From IMG/VR virus record IMGVR_UViG_2799112954_000004, positions 1-64,000 of that record: a stretch of 64,000 nt of DNA; one strand, given 5' to 3'. Each line of letters opens with the position of its first letter. The stretch's first letter is position 1. Made by a program: the position numbers and the translations under genes. The DNA is from a virus. Its lineage: Duplodnaviria > Caudoviricetes. Shown piece by piece: positions 32,358-49,581 of this stretch. Below the pieces are notes generated by a model. The model was not told the origin of the DNA and did not search any database. It saw nothing but the letters and a program-made list of their open reading frames with translations.

Positions 32358-32473
32358 TACTATTATAGTTTAATGTGAGTTATCGCAGTCGTATGCGAAC
32401 AGACTTTCTCAGAACCATATAGCAAGAGCAATGTTTCAACTAAGTTCTGTTGCGCACGTCTTACTACGCATCG

Positions 32474-32503
32474 CAAAAATACGAAATATATTTGAAAGAC
32501 AAA
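32474..32503 (-). promoter_or_regulatory. Class II promoter for head operon
   Basis: TTTGTCTTTCAAATATATTTCG-TATTTTTG. Confidence 0.7.
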
Positions 32504-32554
32504 TACTTTAATGAAGATTTAACAATCGTTATACATTCTGCGCTACGCATAACG

Positions 32555-38372: not shown

Positions 38373-38403
38373 CAAAGATAGGCAAAAGTATTTGAAAGAC
38401 AAA
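38373..38403 (-). promoter_or_regulatory. Class II promoter for portal operon
   Basis: TTTGTCTTTCAAATACTTTTGCC-TATCTTTG. Confidence 0.75.
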
Positions 38404-38519
38404 TGTTTTTAGCAACTTTTTTGCCGCCAACGAAACATTTTGCACTTTCTACTAACTTTTGCCTTCAAAAGTAAATAAGAAACTGCCTCTGCAGAAAAAA
38501 CTATTTTCGACTGATGGAG

Positions 38520-42537: not shown

Positions 42538-44076
42538 TTATAAAGCGTCATTCGCTATCTGTTGTAACTCACGCTCATTGGTGGAGTATGGGTAGAACGT
42601 GTTGGCCACAGCATCCATCTTATCTGGTGAGCGCTTTATCTTCTCCTTTATGTCATCCTTGGACTCTATGATAATCTTGCCATTGCTTTGGAACTTCCAT
42701 TTCGTGGACGTGACCTCCTCCATAAACTGATCATCGGGAGGCACCGCTGGCTGGAAATTATTCTTCGGGTTAAGCCACTCTCTCATTTTCCAGTGGAGAT
42801 AGGCTCGCATATTAGCAAACTCGTATTGGCCAGTGAGGTCATGCAGATTGGCTGCGCTCTCAGAGAACTTACAAGAGATGGCGTTATCGCAGCCAAGCTC
42901 TATCAACCTGGAATAGACTCCAGCTCCCTCTCCGATGGTATCTATGAAAGCACGCGCCTTGCTATTATAGAGATATACTCTCACCATGCCAGCGACCAGC
43001 ATGTGGTCTGCCTTTCCTCCCGATTGGTGCACCTTGAACTCCGGAATGTAGTTGCCGTAGCGAGGGCAGATAACGGATGAGTCTCGACCCATACCAGCAA
43101 CATCGACACCGAGCCTTGCAGACTTTCTCGGCTTGAAGTTCTGAGCATGAAGCACTTTCCACCTCTCGTTGGCAAGCTCAACCCACTCGTATGGGATGAG
43201 GACGTCCTCAGATACTCTCGGGAACATACCTCGCACTTTCACTCGGAACAGATCATCCGGACGATACACGCCTCCTTCCCATTTGAAGTCTCCTTGCCCC
43301 TCATCGTAATCTGACGGCTCTATCTTCTCGCACCACGTCTCGACCTTATCCTTTACCCATTCATAGTCCACCTGGCCCTTGATAACGACTTTCTTCTTCA
43401 CGACGTTCTCAGCATTCAGACTGTCAAGCCTAAACTTGTTGAAACGAGTGGAGCGCATAGCATTAGCCGCATATCCCATGGTAACGTTAGGGTTGAACAC
43501 AAGAAGCAACCTCGAATTGTTCTGCAAGTTGCCCTCGATAGCGTCATAGATGGTCTGTGAGATACCCGTTGCCTCGGTCACAACGAACATAATGTTGGAA
43601 GCATGGAGACCCGACCACGCCTCGGTGTTGTCATCATCAGCCTTGAAGCCAGTGAGGAACCATTCCTCATAGTCGGTACGAATATCGTTTCCGACCAAAC
43701 GGCCAGGGCAGGAGAATGGAAAACGTATCTTTGCCGACCGAATGAGTCTGCGGATCTCCGGCGTCATAATATTCTTCACCTGACGGTCCGTAGGGGCAGT
43801 CATAGCAACCTTGGTGTTCTCTACCATCACTCCGTTCTCAAAACGTGGGGTGAGGTATAGAAAACACAAAGCACAGCAAGCTGCAACGAAATCCTTACCT
43901 CTTGCTGTGCCACTTGCCACTGCGGTCATCTTATTGTTCTGGACTGACTCGACGATGGCTTGCTGCTCTTTATCAAGTCTTACTCCAAGCACATCTCTAC
44001 AAAACGCATTCCAATCCTTTCTCCAATATTCGACCGCCTTATTTATCAGCTCCTGCCTTTCCTTTTTGGTCATCTT
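42538..44076 (-). CDS. Terminase large subunit
   Basis: VASGTARGKDF (Walker A), VVTEATG (Walker B), LLLVFNP, LGVDVAGMGRDSS, RSPDKMDA; likely start MTKKERQ at 44076. Confidence 0.9.
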   Translation of the reverse strand, partial: KMTKKERQELINKAVEYWRKDWNAFCRDVLGVRLDKEQQAIVESVQNNKMTAVASGTARGKDFVAACCALCFLYLTPRFENGVMVENTKVAMTAPTDRQVKNIMTPEIRRLIRSAKIRFPFSCPGRLVGNDIRTDYEEWFLTGFKADDDNTEAWSGLHASNIMFVVTEATGISQTIYDAIEGNLQNNSRLLLVFNPNVTMGYAANAMRSTRFNKFRLDSLNAENVVKKKVVIKGQVDYEWVKDKVETWCEKIEPSDYDEGQGDFKWEGGVYRPDDLFRVKVRGMFPRVSEDVLIPYEWVELANERWKVLHAQNFKPRKSARLGVDVAGMGRDSSVICPRYGNYIPEFKVHQSGGKADHMLVAGMVRVYLYNSKARAFIDTIGEGAGVYSRLIELGCDNAISCKFSESAANLHDLTGQYEFANMRAYLHWKMREWLNPKNNFQPAVPPDDQFMEEVTSTKWKFQSNGKIIIESKDDIKEKIKRSPDKMDAVANTFYPYSTNERELQQIANDAL

Positions 44077-44521
44077 TCTCGTATCCGTCAACCATGGACT
44101 GGAGGGCACTTACCCATTCATCACTATCAACTTTCACATCTTGTCTGTCACGCCAAATGTCCGGGCGACGATTCTTCAGCCAAAAGATAGCAGCCGTAGT
44201 GTCTGGCGGTATCGGGTCCTCAGTGGTCTCCACCTTTGCTGGTTTCTGATTGCCGTTCTCGTCCATCTCCACAATAATCTTCTTATGCTTGATGACGATA
44301 TTACCAACAGCACGATTATAGAGGGACTTTGTCACCTTTGCGTCTGCAACGGATTTTCCCTCTTTCAGCGAGTCCAACAATGAGCTGTATTTCTTTTTCC
44401 ATCTATGGAACGTTCTTACAGTTATTCCAAGGATGTCTGCTATCTGCTCGTCTGTCTTTCCTTCTACGGCGAGTGCCCACACAATATGGTCATGAGTCTT
44501 TGGATTATACGTTGTTGCCAT
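44039..44521 (-). CDS. Terminase small subunit
   Basis: N-terminal HTH (TDEQIADILGITVRTFHRWKK), SLYNRAVG, PPDTTAAIFWLKNRRPDIWRD. Confidence 0.9.
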   Translation of the reverse strand: MATTYNPKTHDHIVWALAVEGKTDEQIADILGITVRTFHRWKKKYSSLLDSLKEGKSVADAKVTKSLYNRAVGNIVIKHKKIIVEMDENGNQKPAKVETTEDPIPPDTTAAIFWLKNRRPDIWRDRQDVKVDSDEWVSALQSMVDGYEKDDQKGKAGADK

Positions 44522-45419
44522 ATTTCTCTAACGCCTTTACAAGTCCTAACCAACGTTTCTTCGGAGGAATGATGCCATCTTTCTCCATGTTGTCAAGAGC
44601 CTCTTTCACTTTCTGAGCATCCTCAACAGGTATTGCACCGGCACCGAACACTCTCGTGAGTGGCACATACTCTTGCGTGGAGTCGAAATCTGCGTCAGCC
44701 ATTTTCTCCTCAGCACATTTCACCATCATATAGATGGCTTGGCCAATATTCTTTACGTTCTCAAACTCCTTGAATTTCTCGAGAGTCTGGAGCAATTTCT
44801 CATACTGATCGATGTAAGCGACACCGATGAAGTCTCTGCCGCTTGCTTTCTTGACGAGAGCTTCCAAATCCTTCACCTGATAGGGCAGGAAAAGGAACTC
44901 CATCTGCTGCCAATCGAAATCCGTCTTCGGGTCGAGCAACTTCTCAATGGTGAGCTTTGGCTCCTCGAACAAATCCTTGCCGCCATAAGACTCAATCTTA
45001 TCATCAACATCGGTAATCATCTTTGCGATTTCCCGAAGCGTGTCCTTGTCATCGTAGCCATCGATGGCATTATGGGCCAGTTGCTTTGCAGCCTTTTGGG
45101 AACGGTTGAGCCCCGATAAGTCAAGCAGGACGTACACGAACTTCAGTCCTGCGGCTTTGGCGGCTCTTATCCTATGGTGGCCACTGATGATCTCTACACG
45201 GCCATTGAAATACACGCAGAACGGAACGGACTCCAGCTGACCACGATGCTTGATATTCTCAGTCAGTTGGTTCATCATTTCGTTTGGCTGAATACGGGCG
45301 TTCTTATCCTGCTCCTTGATGATGGATATTTCAACTTTTGAAAAGACAATGCCAGTGCCCATGTCGACAAGGTACTCAACACCGTCTATTTTTGGTTTTT
45401 CTGTCTGTTCTGTTGCCAT
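44505..45419 (-). CDS. ParB/Srx-like N-terminal domain protein
   Basis: NAR...QLTENIK.RGQLESVP...EIISGHHRIRAA...QLAHNAIDG. Confidence 0.8.
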   Translation of the reverse strand: MATEQTEKPKIDGVEYLVDMGTGIVFSKVEISIIKEQDKNARIQPNEMMNQLTENIKHRGQLESVPFCVYFNGRVEIISGHHRIRAAKAAGLKFVYVLLDLSGLNRSQKAAKQLAHNAIDGYDDKDTLREIAKMITDVDDKIESYGGKDLFEEPKLTIEKLLDPKTDFDWQQMEFLFLPYQVKDLEALVKKASGRDFIGVAYIDQYEKLLQTLEKFKEFENVKNIGQAIYMMVKCAEEKMADADFDSTQEYVPLTRVFGAGAIPVEDAQKVKEALDNMEKDGIIPPKKRWLGLVKALEKYGNNV

Positions 45420-46801
45420 AGCTTCTCTTTCTTTAGAAATTCTTTCAATATCTCGTAAGGCTTTTTGTCGGTTAGCTCAGCACGATACTGGAGTTTATAA
45501 CCGATCTTCGACTTATCCTTATTGTAGCACTTCATAACACCGCGCATCTCCTTGCTCTCCGGATACTTGGTAATCATAGAAGTTTGCATATACTTGTAAT
45601 TCTTCATCTTATCTGCTGCAACGTATGGAGCAATGAGAGGCTTGCTCATACTCAGCATTACCATCAATCTGTGAAGTCTAAGATACGCGTGCTGTGGAGT
45701 GATACCGTAGATGAGCATCATTTGGTCTCCAGCAACGGAAGCAGGAGGCTGCAATGCTATTCCCATTACTCCCCAAAGCAAACCGTCAGCAAAGAGAGCG
45801 AAGTCGAGATTGACCATACCGCCACCACCTTGAAAATTGTGAGTCCACAGGTTGCGGTAATATTTTGCGATGGAGGCTGTAATCTTCTTGATTCCGATTT
45901 TGGTCTTCTCTGTTATCTCGTAATCAAGCGGCATGATGGAACAATTTAGTTTTTGCGTTTTATCCTCATTCGCCCTCGATATCATCGTGCCATTGGATAA
46001 CTGGAGGGCAACCTCCGGCTTATTCGTGGTCTGATAAACGTTGAAGTCTCCACGGCTGTTATGCCGACAGAAGATGGGGAAGCCAGCAGTTTCTCCCACC
46101 TTACATTCCTCGTAAGCGAGGATCAACGCATTCGCGTCTCCCATCAAGTCAACCATAACGTCTCTTCTTCCAGTCTCTGGGTCAAAGATGTTGTAGCTCG
46201 GCTCTTTCCACGTCACCATATCTCCAAAATTGAACTGTTGCTCGTAGCCTCCTTTGTAGGTCGGCAGCTGAGCAACAATAAGCGTCTTCTCGTCATCCTT
46301 TACTTCGTTCAGATGGTCTATCAAGTCCAGTGGTCGATAATTGATGCCGTGGAGTATTTTCTTTGCATGGTCGAGTGAAGTTTGGAAATCCTTAATGTGG
46401 CTCACTCTATTCAACTCCATATCTCTCAGCATGGAGTAGCCATAATCGTTTCCAGCCGATTTGCGAAGCCTATGGTACAGCATAGCGTAAAGCACCGTTG
46501 CTGGGTCCTTGCATTCCTCATCTGTAAAGCCCTCGATATGTATCTCTAAATCATCCAAAGGCTTGTCCATGATGGCATATCCGAAAACTGAGGAATAGAG
46601 GGTGACGTCGCTCGCTTCAATCTGATCAGGCTTGAACCCTGCTTGAACCGCTAAATTTGACATGGCGAAAGAACCAGCGCACGGCTCGACTATTCTTGTG
46701 AAACCCTGCGCTTTTGCGTTTATCATTATCTGCTTGATAAACTTCTGCTGATCAGAATGCACCTGACCAATAAACAAACTTCCTGGGGACGCAAAAATCA
46801 T
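45386..46801 (-). CDS. Adenine methyltransferase-like protein with C-terminal Mom/GNAT-like domain (putative DNA modification enzyme)
   Basis: Motif I-like IVEPCAGSF, degenerate motif IV AQLPTY; C-terminal LWTHN...FALFADGLLWGV pattern. Confidence 0.55.
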   Translation of the reverse strand: MIFASPGSLFIGQVHSDQQKFIKQIMINAKAQGFTRIVEPCAGSFAMSNLAVQAGFKPDQIEASDVTLYSSVFGYAIMDKPLDDLEIHIEGFTDEECKDPATVLYAMLYHRLRKSAGNDYGYSMLRDMELNRVSHIKDFQTSLDHAKKILHGINYRPLDLIDHLNEVKDDEKTLIVAQLPTYKGGYEQQFNFGDMVTWKEPSYNIFDPETGRRDVMVDLMGDANALILAYEECKVGETAGFPIFCRHNSRGDFNVYQTTNKPEVALQLSNGTMISRANEDKTQKLNCSIMPLDYEITEKTKIGIKKITASIAKYYRNLWTHNFQGGGGMVNLDFALFADGLLWGVMGIALQPPASVAGDQMMLIYGITPQHAYLRLHRLMVMLSMSKPLIAPYVAADKMKNYKYMQTSMITKYPESKEMRGVMKCYNKDKSKIGYKLQYRAELTDKKPYEILKEFLKKEKLWQQNRQKNQK

Positions 46802-46826: not shown

Positions 46827-46898
46827 TCCGGAGGGACAGTTTCGCTCTACCACCTCCTTAGCCCCTTGCTAAGTGCTCTATCATTAAGCTACCTCCGG
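46827..46898 (-). ncRNA. Degenerate tRNA-Pro(AGG)-like cloverleaf
   Basis: 72 nt with canonical arm lengths: CCGGAGG/CCTCCGG, GCTT/GAGC, CTTAG/CTAAG, variable GAGGT, GGTAG/CTGTC; loops CAAGGGG and AGCGAAA non-canonical; ends ACAA. Confidence 0.75.
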
Positions 46899-46910: not shown

Positions 46911-46940
46911 CAAAGATACGAAATATATTTGAAAGACAAA
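46911..46940 (-). promoter_or_regulatory. Class II promoter for modification/terminase operon
   Basis: TTTGTCTTTCAAATATATTTCG-TATCTTTG. Confidence 0.75.
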
Positions 46941-46972: not shown

Positions 46973-47009
46973 AAAAAGAGGCAGAGGGCTGGCACGCTCC
47001 CTCCACCTC
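46973..47009 (-). terminator. Intrinsic terminator after luxS
   Basis: GAGGTGGAGGGAGC-GTGCCA-GCCCTCTGCCTC followed by TTTTT. Confidence 0.7.
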
Positions 47010-47056: not shown

Positions 47057-47530
47057 TTAGTCGTAGCTCATATTCTCCGGCTTGATATTGTCGAGAACAT
47101 TCAGATACCTCTTCGCTATGCTCCTTGCTTCTTTCAGCGAATGGAAATGAGTGTTACCACACTCTTCCTCAGTAGCACCAGGTATATCTGTATCCCATTC
47201 TCTGACCGCCACAAACATACGATGGATGAGATTCAAAATCTGAGCACTGTCGTAGTCACCTTTCACAATCAGATAGAAACCAGTGAGGCATCCCATCGGC
47301 CCAAAATAGATGATGCTGTCTTTCCATTCATCATCATTTCTAAGGAATGTGGCACCAATATGCTCAATGGTGTGGGCTGCTTCTGGGAGCATATAATCTA
47401 CATTCGGCTTTTCCACTCTTATGTCGAAGGTGGTGATGATGTCTCCCGATGGCGTCCTATCCTTCCTTGACACATAGATGCCGCACTGCAGCTTCTTGTG
47501 GTCAACTTTGAAACTTTCTATCTTTTCCAT
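47057..47530 (-). CDS. luxS: S-ribosylhomocysteine lyase (AI-2 synthase)
   Basis: ESFKVDH, TTFDIR..KPN, HTIEH metal motif, GPMGCLTGFY catalytic Cys, ECGN. Confidence 0.95.
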   Translation of the reverse strand: MEKIESFKVDHKKLQCGIYVSRKDRTPSGDIITTFDIRVEKPNVDYMLPEAAHTIEHIGATFLRNDDEWKDSIIYFGPMGCLTGFYLIVKGDYDSAQILNLIHRMFVAVREWDTDIPGATEEECGNTHFHSLKEARSIAKRYLNVLDNIKPENMSYD

Positions 47531-47532
47531 TT

Positions 47533-47790
47533 TTACTCCTCCACTTTATCGTAGGTCTTCTTAAAGGCTTCGGGCTTGCAAGGGTACAGCTCACCGAGGA
47601 CCCCCTTGATGATATAGTCTCCTTTGCTTGCGTGCATTTCACCTTCGAGGGTGGGGATAACAAGTTTGTCACTATTCTCAGAAAGAAGCGAGACCTCACC
47701 ATTCGAGAACTTGGATATTTCATCAAAATTACGGCCATCCCATTGAACAGCCGTAACTTGAACTCTTTTCTTAATATACTTTCCAATCAT
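47533..47790 (-). CDS. Conserved small phage protein
   Basis: IPTLEGEMHASKGDYIIKGVLGELYPCKPEAFKKTY motif. Confidence 0.75.
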   Translation of the reverse strand: MIGKYIKKRVQVTAVQWDGRNFDEISKFSNGEVSLLSENSDKLVIPTLEGEMHASKGDYIIKGVLGELYPCKPEAFKKTYDKVEE

Positions 47791-47795
47791 AATGA

Positions 47796-49052
47796 TTACA
47801 AGCCAAAAGTCTCTCTCAGATAGTCTGCAATATCAGTCTTCTCCCAAGTGAACAGATCCACCTGCATAGTCTTCTCGGGATTATACTTGCTCTTAAAGAC
47901 CTTCGTGACCGTCCTCGGCTCACGTCCAAAGTGACCGTAGGAGGCTGTCTCAAAGTACATAGGCTGTCTCAGCGAGAACCTTTGCTCAATGAACTTCGGG
48001 CGCAAATCGAAGAAATTTCTGATGTACTCAGCAATCTCTCCGTCAGTCTTATCAACGTGGCTCTTTCCATAGGTGTTGACGAACACACTGACAGGCTGAG
48101 CAACGCCAATGGCATAAGCAAGCTGAACGAGCATTTCATCAGCAACTCCTGCAGCAACCATATTCTTGGCAATCCAGCGAGCCATATAAGCGGCAGAACG
48201 GTCAACCTTACTTGGGTCCTTGCCGGAGAAAGCACCACCGCCGTGCGCTCCACGGCCGCCATAGGTGTCAACGATAATCTTACGGCCAGTCAAACCCGTG
48301 TCTCCATGAGGACCACCGATAACGAACTTTCCAGTAGGGTTGACGTACAGCCCGAAGGCACCACTAAGCAAGTTCCGAACGTTCTTGTCCTTGATTCTCG
48401 AACGGACTCTCGGAATGAGGATGGTACGAACGTCATTCTTGATCTGCTCCTGCATAGCCTCATCTGAGCCGAACTCATCGTGCTGGGTGGAGATAACGAT
48501 ATTGTCAATGTGCAATGGCGTACCATCATCTGAATACTTAACCGTCACCTGACTCTTCGCATCGGGACGGAGGTAGGTCATCACCTTACCTTCCTTTCTG
48601 ATTGCAGTAAGTTCCTCCATCAGCAGGTTTGCCAAATAGATGGGCGTAGGCATATACGTCTCGGTCTCATTTGTTGCGTAACCGAACATCATACCTTGGT
48701 CTCCTGCTCCTTGCTCCATTACGTCTGCTGTTTCAACACCACGATTGATGTCGTCACTCTGCTCATGGATGGCATTGATGATACCACAAGAATCGTAATC
48801 AAACTGGTATTCTGCTTTCGTATAGCCTATGCGTCTGATTACTTCTCTCGCTACAGCTTGCAGGTCAATATATGCGTTGCTTCTTACCTCTCCTGCGAGA
48901 ACTACCTGCCCTGTGGTGCAAAGGGTTTCAACTGCGACATGTGACTTTGGGTCATACGCCAAAAACTGGTCTAAGATTGCGTCTGAAATCTGATCCGCAA
49001 CCTTGTCTGGGTGTCCTTCTGATACGGACTCCGAAGTGAATAAATAAGCCAT
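47796..49052 (-). CDS. metK: S-adenosylmethionine synthetase (Bacteroidetes type)
   Basis: [55 protein letters not shown]; true start MAYLFTSE at 49052. Confidence 0.97.
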
Positions 49053-49073
49053 ATAAACTAAAATAATATATTG

Positions 49074-49173
49074 CACCCGTCTTCGGATTCGGACCGAAAC
49101 TCCCGTGCGCATGGGACTCCACGTTCTATACGGCATCGCCTGCTGCCTTTTGCACTACCGTACAGGGACGGGT
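49074..49173 (-). ncRNA. tRNA-like structured element in metK leader
   Basis: ACCCGTC/GACGGGT 7-bp acceptor-like stem stacked on TTCGG/CCGAA 5-bp arm with loop TCCGAAT; three internal hairpins; ends GCAA. Confidence 0.65.
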
Positions 49174-49179
49174 TAATGC

Positions 49180-49581
49180 CTACATATCGAAAAGACTCAA
49201 CTGCTTGTACTTTGGCTCCTTGCTCTTGCCGAACTCCTCAACTCCGAGATTCAGCTTCTCATTGAGCCAGTCTGCAAGAAGATGGCGATGGCAGAAATCG
49301 TCCGGCTTCTCAAAGCAACAGAGAGCAATGTCTCTTCCGCCACTGACCTCCTGCAGCTTTCTCAGCACCTCATTAGGATTGAGGCGACCAAGGACTTCTC
49401 TCTTATACCGCGCTGTATAAACGTCCAAATCCTGCTCGTTCAGAATGGAGTAGGTCGGCGCCAGCTCTTTCAGAGATAAACCGTAATACCACTGTGGAGG
49501 ATATAAAGCTACTCCTACCATCTTAACTCCGGCTTTCTTCAGCTTCTTGCCGTTCGCGAAATATGACGTGTAAACTTTCAT
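49180..49581 (-). CDS. DUF488-family protein
   Basis: YTSYF, LAPT, LCCFEKPDDFCHRHLLADWL. Confidence 0.8.
   Translation of the reverse strand: MKVYTSYFANGKKLKKAGVKMVGVALYPPQWYYGLSLKELAPTYSILNEQDLDVYTARYKREVLGRLNPNEVLRKLQEVSGGRDIALCCFEKPDDFCHRHLLADWLNEKLNLGVEEFGKSKEPKYKQLSLFDM

Follow-up and report, generated by a model that had tools for sequence, protein, structure and literature searches.

A phage proline-type tRNA gene that appears unfit for decoding accompanies a Dam-like/GNAT fusion enzyme and may serve it as an aminoacyl donor

Why a phage would retain every stem of a tRNA cloverleaf while the loops that serve translation depart from their decoding-competent form is the question raised by a 72-nt element on the minus strand at positions 46827-46898 of a 64-kb stretch of phage DNA, the whole of which was analysed and is called the window here. 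The window lies within a 2.85-Mb metagenome-assembled genome, and the same phage is also found on a 75.5-kb IMG/VR contig that carries an identical element. A preliminary description, in which the strand was not given, had drawn the element as a cloverleaf of perfect length with all stems paired, and the sequence bears this out with 21 of 21 stem pairs, three of them G-U. The 7-bp acceptor stem (CCGGAGG/CCTCCGG) is followed by U8 and A9, then by a 4-bp D stem (GCTT/GAGC) with the D loop AATGATA, which contains G18 and A19, a 5-bp anticodon stem (CTTAG/CTAAG) with the loop CAAGGGG (C32, A33, A34, G35, G36, G37 and G38), a variable loop of 5 nt, and a 5-bp T stem (GGTAG/CTGTC) with the T loop AGCGAAA, which begins A54-G55-C56. 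The gene comprises positions 1 to 73, with the pairs C1:G72, C2:G71 and G3:C70 at the acceptor end and the discriminator A73 followed by CAA, not CCA.

The set of loop residues that marks a decoding-competent tRNA (U33, T54-U55-C56 and G18-G19) is absent, A33, A54-G55-C56 and G18-A19 standing in its place, and the gene reads as a non-decoding one of the proline type. The residues listed for these loops in the preliminary description (A33, A34, G35-G37, G18-A19 and AGCGAAA) are all correct. Prolyl-tRNA synthetase (ProRS) identifies bacterial tRNA-Pro by G35, G36, A73 and G72/C1; the element has this entire set, as had been proposed, and the same set occurs in the three tRNA-Pro genes of the host (CGG, UGG and GGG). 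The body of the element is unrelated to these three genes, yet C1:G72, A73 and G35-G37 are common to all of them. Derivation from a host tRNA-Pro was considered and rejected, the identity of 46/72 being equal to that with unrelated tRNAs. An ordinary bacterial tRNA-Pro is thus resembled in cloverleaf geometry, in the identity residues, in G37 and in passing the Rfam tRNA model RF00005; the differences lie in A33, A34, A19 and the T loop, and in rejection by ARAGORN.

The detection of the element depends strongly on the method. A geometric cloverleaf scan with stems of 7/4/5/5 bp, which allowed ten combinations of loop length, returned it as the sole site where 20 or more of the 21 pairs form across the 128 kb of the two strands, at a chance expectation that we estimate from pair probabilities at about 0.001 sites per window. 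ARAGORN called no tRNA in the window, the element included. Rfam gave no tRNA match at the gathering threshold on the 64 kb, nor at E values up to 10 on a 351-nt piece, because the speed (HMM) filters discard the element; on a 106-nt slice, RF00005 covers exactly 46827-46898 (model positions 1-71) with 38.1 bits against a gathering score of 29. A covariance model of the related tRNAs, R1, built without the element, matches it with 55.1 bits (E 1.4e-11) as its single match in the window, and by ARAGORN and R1 together it is the only tRNA-like gene in the 64 kb. Minimum free energy folding fails to return the cloverleaf, and the z-score of only -1.78 is uninformative, as such scores are for tRNAs. 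A chance cloverleaf is ruled out by uniqueness within the window, by the existence of homologues and by the RF00005 pass. Standard tRNA finders and filtered Rfam scans systematically miss genes of this kind, the copy in the window being invisible to ARAGORN.

The surroundings of the element place it at the start of a transcription unit. Promoters of Bacteroidota follow the consensus TTTG/TAnnTTTG, and a promoter of this type is predicted on the minus strand at 46911-46940, with TTTG (-33) at 46940-46937, a spacing of 18 nt, and TATCTTTG (-7) at 46918-46911. Between this -7 box and C1 at 46898 lie 12 nt, which agrees with the distance first reported. Upstream of the promoter, an 11-bp hairpin with a 10-nt loop (46973-47009, minus strand, -19.2 kcal/mol) runs into UUUUU and is likely to be the terminator of the preceding DUF488-metK-luxS unit. 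Because this putative terminator is located upstream of the element, the tRNA would head a new transcript, in accordance with its earlier placement as the first element of a modification/terminase transcript. A scan for sigma-70 promoters and simple terminators had found nothing, since Bacteroidota promoters differ from the former and the scan limited terminator loops to 8 nt, as against the 10 nt present here. The core of the promoter (about 35 nt, TTTG ... TAtcTTTG) recurs on the minus strand near 32471-32505 and at 38373-38419, and looks like a phage promoter class common to several transcription units.

Downstream on the same strand, and starting 25 nt after A73, is a gene at 45386-46801 for a 471-aa fusion of a Dam-like domain (PF22555, Dam-like-phage1) and a GNAT-phage-like domain (PF22559), which the preliminary description did not mention. 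It is followed by a gene for a ParB-N-like protein (phrog_7405, 44505-45419), which overlaps the end of the fusion gene, by an HTH protein (44039-44521) that is probably the small terminase subunit, judging by its position ahead of the large subunit, and by the terminase large subunit itself (42538-44109; phrog_2, E 2.9e-30).

Loci encoding orthologues of the fusion, with identities of 34-100%, were drawn from viral, genome and metagenome collections, and in 163 of these 172 loci a family tRNA precedes the gene on its own strand. Of the nine exceptions, seven offer under 1.5 kb of sequence ahead of the gene and two offer under 400 nt. The gap between tRNA and gene has a median of 166 nt and ranges from 11 to 2055 nt, being mostly below 200 nt, and the hosts of the linked loci include Bacteroidota, Bacillota and Actinomycetota. 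In most viral and genome loci, ARAGORN itself calls an upstream, same-strand tRNA-Lys(CUU) or tRNA-Pro(UGG/CGG), and 23 of these calls served to build model R1. Since ordinary tRNAs of the host likewise reach 40-74 bits with R1, a match alone is no proof of membership, and membership in the family is founded on synteny together with a common signature. Because the family tRNA accompanies the Dam-like/GNAT gene almost universally, the two are best regarded as partners, and the roles initially put forward for the element, as a riboregulator, nuclease decoy or processing signal, are disfavoured as its main function. An order-level search of 401 genomes found the enzyme only in the window's own genome, and in the phage collection it occurs only in Faecalibacterium phage FP_Brigit (two records) and Microbacterium phage ValentiniPuff. 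A scan of viral contigs with a DNA pattern of the D arm and anticodon gave no match.

The family signature indicates which parts of the tRNA matter. Across 47 distinct rows, 96.1% of the cells pair and double changes are seen in 18 of the 21 pairs, compared with about 40% pairing in slid controls, so that the covariation which the preliminary description had proposed to look for in homologous loci is strong family-wide, and the stems show none of the random decay that it had named as contrary evidence. Near-invariance is found at the acceptor end, with C1:G72 in 41/43 sequences, C2:G71 in 43/43, G3:C70 in 43/45 and A73 in 48/51, and in the anticodon, with UU or GG at positions 35-36 in all of the 51 distinct sequences and C34 in 47/51. 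The acceptor pairs 4-7, by comparison, are free to vary across the family. The element in the window carries the full signature, with GG at 35-36. Most members are of the Lys type, and C1:G72 is not a feature of lysine tRNAs, the host's tRNA-Lys genes beginning with G. The residues important for translation are handled differently: A33 replaces U33 in 9/51, U37 replaces a purine in 19/51, the GG of the D loop is retained in only 19/51, and the T loop does not start with TTC in 10/51, with A33, U37 and the missing GG recurring in many independent lineages that retain the enzyme. As read from this alignment, the residues that persist are those which a synthetase and a reader of the acceptor end would need, and the residues that drift are those which the ribosome would need. 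Within the family, the copy in the window is the most degenerate among those examined. The loops that the preliminary description called disabled are in part a trait of the family, as A33 illustrates, and the anticodon loop of the closest relative is still canonical.

Further differences separate the members of the family. After A73, CCA is encoded in 34/51, which are Bacillota-associated, and CAA is found in 10/51, which are of the Bacteroidota type and include the window; most tRNA genes of the host likewise have no encoded CCA. In most Lys-type members the T stem has a 5' strand of six nucleotides, with a one-base bulge before G53 (for example L017:2253-2329), and the Pro-type members, that of the window among them, have no such bulge. 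Switches between the Lys-type and Pro-type anticodon occurred at least three times on the enzyme tree, a quick IQ-TREE version for which the count of three is provisional, and the switch at locus L071 took place with hardly any change in the tRNA body or the enzyme. These repeated switches would mean either that the enzyme tolerates different amino acids or that the role of the RNA is independent of the amino acid; for an amino-acid-specific enzyme they are awkward, because the switch in L071 involves so little change in the enzyme.

The lineage of the window can be followed more closely through the nearest relative that was read, represented by metagenome contigs L098/L099, whose enzyme is 82% identical and which carry a homologous tRNA. 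Both lineages have the D loop AATGATA and the T loop AGCGAAA, while the variable loop is scrambled and the upstream and spacer flanks are unalignable. Both sides of the pairs 7:66, 51:63 and 52:62 have changed in a compensatory manner, and pair 13:22 has gone from G-U to A-U. The probability of retaining 21/21 pairs is 3.7e-4 after 13 random substitutions and 1.4e-4 after seven random substitutions placed in stems. In sequence terms, the structure is under purifying selection in the window's own lineage, which upholds the earlier claim of selection for shape and not for decoding. The anticodon loop of L098/L099 is the canonical CTCGGGG, with U33 and C34, and ARAGORN calls this tRNA as tRNA-Pro(CGG), Rfam likewise recognising a tRNA-Pro. 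Because the same odd D and T loops persist in L098/L099 while the flanks have diverged, the unusual elbow is, by this comparison, an old and selected trait of the clade, and A33 and A34 are younger and specific to this phage; the A33/A34 step could be recent damage. What the window adds to the family picture is compensatory evolution in a Pro-type lineage, together with the recurrence of A33 and of elbow loss across the family. It is highly probable that the element is a real, selected and non-decoding tRNA gene belonging to the Dam-like/GNAT kit.

What such a tRNA might do is suggested by the structure of its partner. The AlphaFold model of the 471-aa enzyme (pLDDT 83) has two domains, of which the N-terminal one has the fold of DNA adenine methylases (E. 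coli Dam, Z 12.6; T4 Dam, Z 10.8). The C-terminal domain has a GNAT fold, and its top GNAT match is Mom of phage Mu (8bv8, Z 10.7, rmsd 3.1 over 139 residues), although generic GNATs follow at Z 10.5 and 9.9, within 1 Z of Mom, and are tied with it. The GNAT assignment agrees with the PF22559 match (E 4.9e-27) and with Foldseek and VIA matches to many GNATs, 8bv8 included. Alignment of the enzyme family with Mu Mom by hhalign gave a probability of 0.45%, and a profile of the enzyme family searched against PDB sequences returned nothing meaningful. In the enzyme of the window, motif I reads EPCAGS. Its motif IV (46250-46270, residues ~178-183) reads QLPTY, a form shared by relatives as far as 76% identity, and the relative at 62% and every more remote one have NPPTY. 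The shift to QLPTY, which could mean an altered or lost activity, matches the clade bearing the T loop AGCGAAA and also a very long branch of the enzyme tree.

To our knowledge, Mom, working on a borrowed host tRNA, is so far the only enzyme with a demonstrated tRNA-dependent modification of DNA. Mom transfers glycine from Gly-tRNAGly to the N6 of adenine in double-stranded DNA (PMC13219725), and the suggestion made in that work is that the acceptor end is the main part of the tRNA to be recognised (PMC13219725, Silva et al. 2026). The likeness between the two systems consists of a phage-encoded GNAT fold, and from it the use of a tRNA donor and an N6-adenine target may be proposed for the enzyme of the window by analogy. 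The differences are considerable. Mom is a single-domain protein that uses the host's tRNAGly, whereas the GNAT domain of the window is fused to a Dam-like domain; no tRNA gene is present in a 1.7-kb right-end stretch of Mu, whereas the fusion family is almost always preceded by its own Lys-type or Pro-type tRNA. Sequence kinship between Mom and the enzyme is undetectable, the likeness being one of fold in a family known from sequence and predicted structure. The literature search found papers on Mom and, with subscription journals thinly covered, none in which a Dam-like/GNAT gene is accompanied by a dedicated tRNA.

A second precedent concerns the tRNA and not the enzyme. In the T loop of the non-proteogenic tRNAGly species of Staphylococcus, TTC is replaced by TGC or TGT, and these tRNAs serve tRNA-dependent glycyl transferases of the cell wall (PMC7826273), and Fem-type peptidyl transferases are grouped with the GNAT superfamily (PMC13219725, Fig. 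5). Like these charged tRNAs, which are diverted from the ribosome and have no pseudouridine 55, the element departs from TTC in the T loop, with AGC at the same place. The loss of U55 in the window copy, which has G55 as do the Staphylococcus TGC/TGT genes, would by the same comparison make a diversion from EF-Tu and the ribosome a putative property of the element. The Staphylococcus tRNAs, however, are chromosomal, carry glycine, act on the cell wall and have a normal U33, whereas the family considered here is phage-encoded, of Pro or Lys type, often without U33 or R37, and tied to an enzyme predicted to be directed at DNA.

Taken together, these comparisons suggest a pathway from transcript to modified DNA. 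From the phage promoter, transcription would begin a few nucleotides before C1 and continue into the genes for the enzyme, ParB and terminase, and host RNase P, a 3' nuclease and the CCA-adding enzyme would then release the 72-nt tRNA plus CCA. Host ProRS would be expected to charge it, because the proline identity set C1:G72, A73, G35 and G36 is intact, and general tRNA biology suggests that A33, A34, A19 and A54-G55 would bar the charged tRNA from decoding. By analogy with Mom, the nearly invariant acceptor end may give up its aminoacyl group to the GNAT domain, and the Dam-like domain may present the target adenine, the result being an amino-acid-derived N6 adduct on phage DNA before packaging. 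The complete proposal, a selected non-decoding proline-type tRNA acting as aminoacyl donor for the fusion enzyme, is an analogy to which we give even chances. A broader version is more tentative and in our judgement somewhat doubtful: that in many phages the sole function of a ribosome-excluded tRNA is to supply a Dam-like/GNAT enzyme with an amino acid, proline here and lysine in most relatives, from which the enzyme makes adducts on adenines of the phage DNA ahead of packaging, with repeated anticodon swaps on a constant acceptor end changing the adduct in the contest with restriction systems. If the donor role is true, there would be a widespread phage module with its own dedicated donor tRNA, new hypermodifications (prolyl- or lysyl-derived adenine adducts) would be expected in gut and rumen phages, and naturally ribosome-excluded tRNAs would be possible engineering parts.

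The same observations can be given other explanations, which differ in how much of the evidence they accommodate. A cis-acting leader, in which an RNase P/RNase Z site sets the 5' end or stability of the mRNA or the cloverleaf is a regulatory mimic recognised by ProRS, TrmD or some other protein with affinity for tRNA, would account for the location of the element, about 12 nt past the -7 box and 25 nt ahead of the start codon with no terminator between, for the short same-strand distance (<200 nt) in most loci, and for a shape conserved while the loops drift. A cleavage signal, however, needs neither an encoded CCA, present in 34/51, nor the identity residues at 35-36, kept in all members, nor A73, kept in nearly all, and with gaps of 11-2055 nt no fixed leader geometry is conserved; we consider this explanation unlikely, a processing role being in any case compatible with a donor role. 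Rather improbable, in our estimate, is that an ordinary phage tRNA-Pro, once kept for codon supply, is being caught here on its way to a pseudogene. The combination of A33 and A34 is indeed confined to this phage, with a canonical, ARAGORN-recognised tRNA-Pro(CGG) in the closest relative and an ARAGORN failure on the window copy, but decay would hardly leave all pairs intact after 13 substitutions, with three compensatory pairs, nor preserve odd T and D loops across 18% protein divergence between randomised flanks. The recurrence of A33, U37 and the missing GG in many enzyme-keeping lineages also speaks against it, as do the linkage to one enzyme gene across phyla, which is unexpected of a codon-supply tRNA, and the status of the element as the only tRNA-like gene in 64 kb.

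Two further explanations turn on the biochemistry of tRNAs. The tRNA could be the target or cofactor of the enzyme, being acylated or methylated by the GNAT or Dam-like domain or serving as a scaffold or guide. GNATs that act on tRNA exist (TmcA and AtaT/TacT, reviewed in PMC13219725), Lys/Pro switches with little change in the enzyme would fit a role independent of the amino acid, and C34 is present in 47/51. Against this, the fold of the Dam-like domain is that of DNA adenine methylases, the kit adjoins ParB and terminase, the usual site of DNA modification before packaging, and conservation is centred on the acceptor end and the synthetase identity positions, which leaves a target or cofactor role only a slim chance. 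Lysine tRNAs are frequent targets of tRNA-cleaving defences, such as anticodon nucleases, and with most family members of the Lys type a decoy or replacement against host defences of this kind could be imagined. Phage tRNAs that rescue from tRNA-cleaving immunity are on record (PMC12409363). A replacement, however, must decode, and most members are without U33, R37 or an intact elbow. A decoy should resemble the anticodon loop of the host, but it is in this loop that the family is least conserved, conservation residing in the acceptor end. As the strict linkage to the Dam-like/GNAT gene would also be left unexplained, a decoy or replacement is very improbable. Hardly credible as the principal explanation is a recombination or attachment site, with the tRNA kept as an integrase target. 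A classic breakpoint pattern does occur among six partial loci, where in the four that were read (L031, L037, L043 and L110) a 3' part of about 46-50 nt lies behind unrelated DNA. In the window, however, kit genes that have a promoter and a terminator of their own lie on both sides of the element, the full gene with its covarying 5' half is conserved in more than 150 loci, and any use as an attachment site would come second to its nature as a tRNA gene.

The partial loci were recognised as partial, low-scoring matches to the tRNA model at L043:2236-2329, L031:1-90, L037:32-90, L110:1236-1329, L163:1236-1329 and L114:1271-1329. In L031, L037 and L043, the 3' part of about 46-50 nt is kept to the CCA, starting from the anticodon stem or, in L037, from the anticodon loop, and the DNA upstream is unrelated, in L043 containing a Cro/C1 HTH gene. 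The anticodon loop of L110 is the same as that of the partial tRNAs in L031, L037 and L043. The breakpoints suggest site-specific recombination into the phage's own tRNA gene, as far as their sequences go.

The unit upstream of the terminator (47057-49581, minus strand) comprises DUF488-N3a (49180-49581), MetK (47796-49136), an 85-aa protein and LuxS (47057-47530). MetK and DUF488-N3a are also located ahead of the tRNA in L017 (3-2249), a Bacillota-type relative with 46% identity. Because these two genes precede the tRNA in both the window and L017, a supply of SAM seems to belong to the kit, and this gene order hints at a chemistry that uses SAM as well as the tRNA. Between DUF488 and metK lies a second structured RNA (49074-49173, minus strand; MFE -39 kcal/mol, z -2.2), which has no match in Rfam or to model R1 and whose fold is closed by a 7-bp stem resembling an acceptor stem and includes a hairpin resembling a T arm, with the loop UCCGAAU. 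In the host genome, a tRNA-Ser(GGA) gene on the contig that holds the window (C95:12748), about 1.5 kb before the start of the window, is a possible site of prophage integration.
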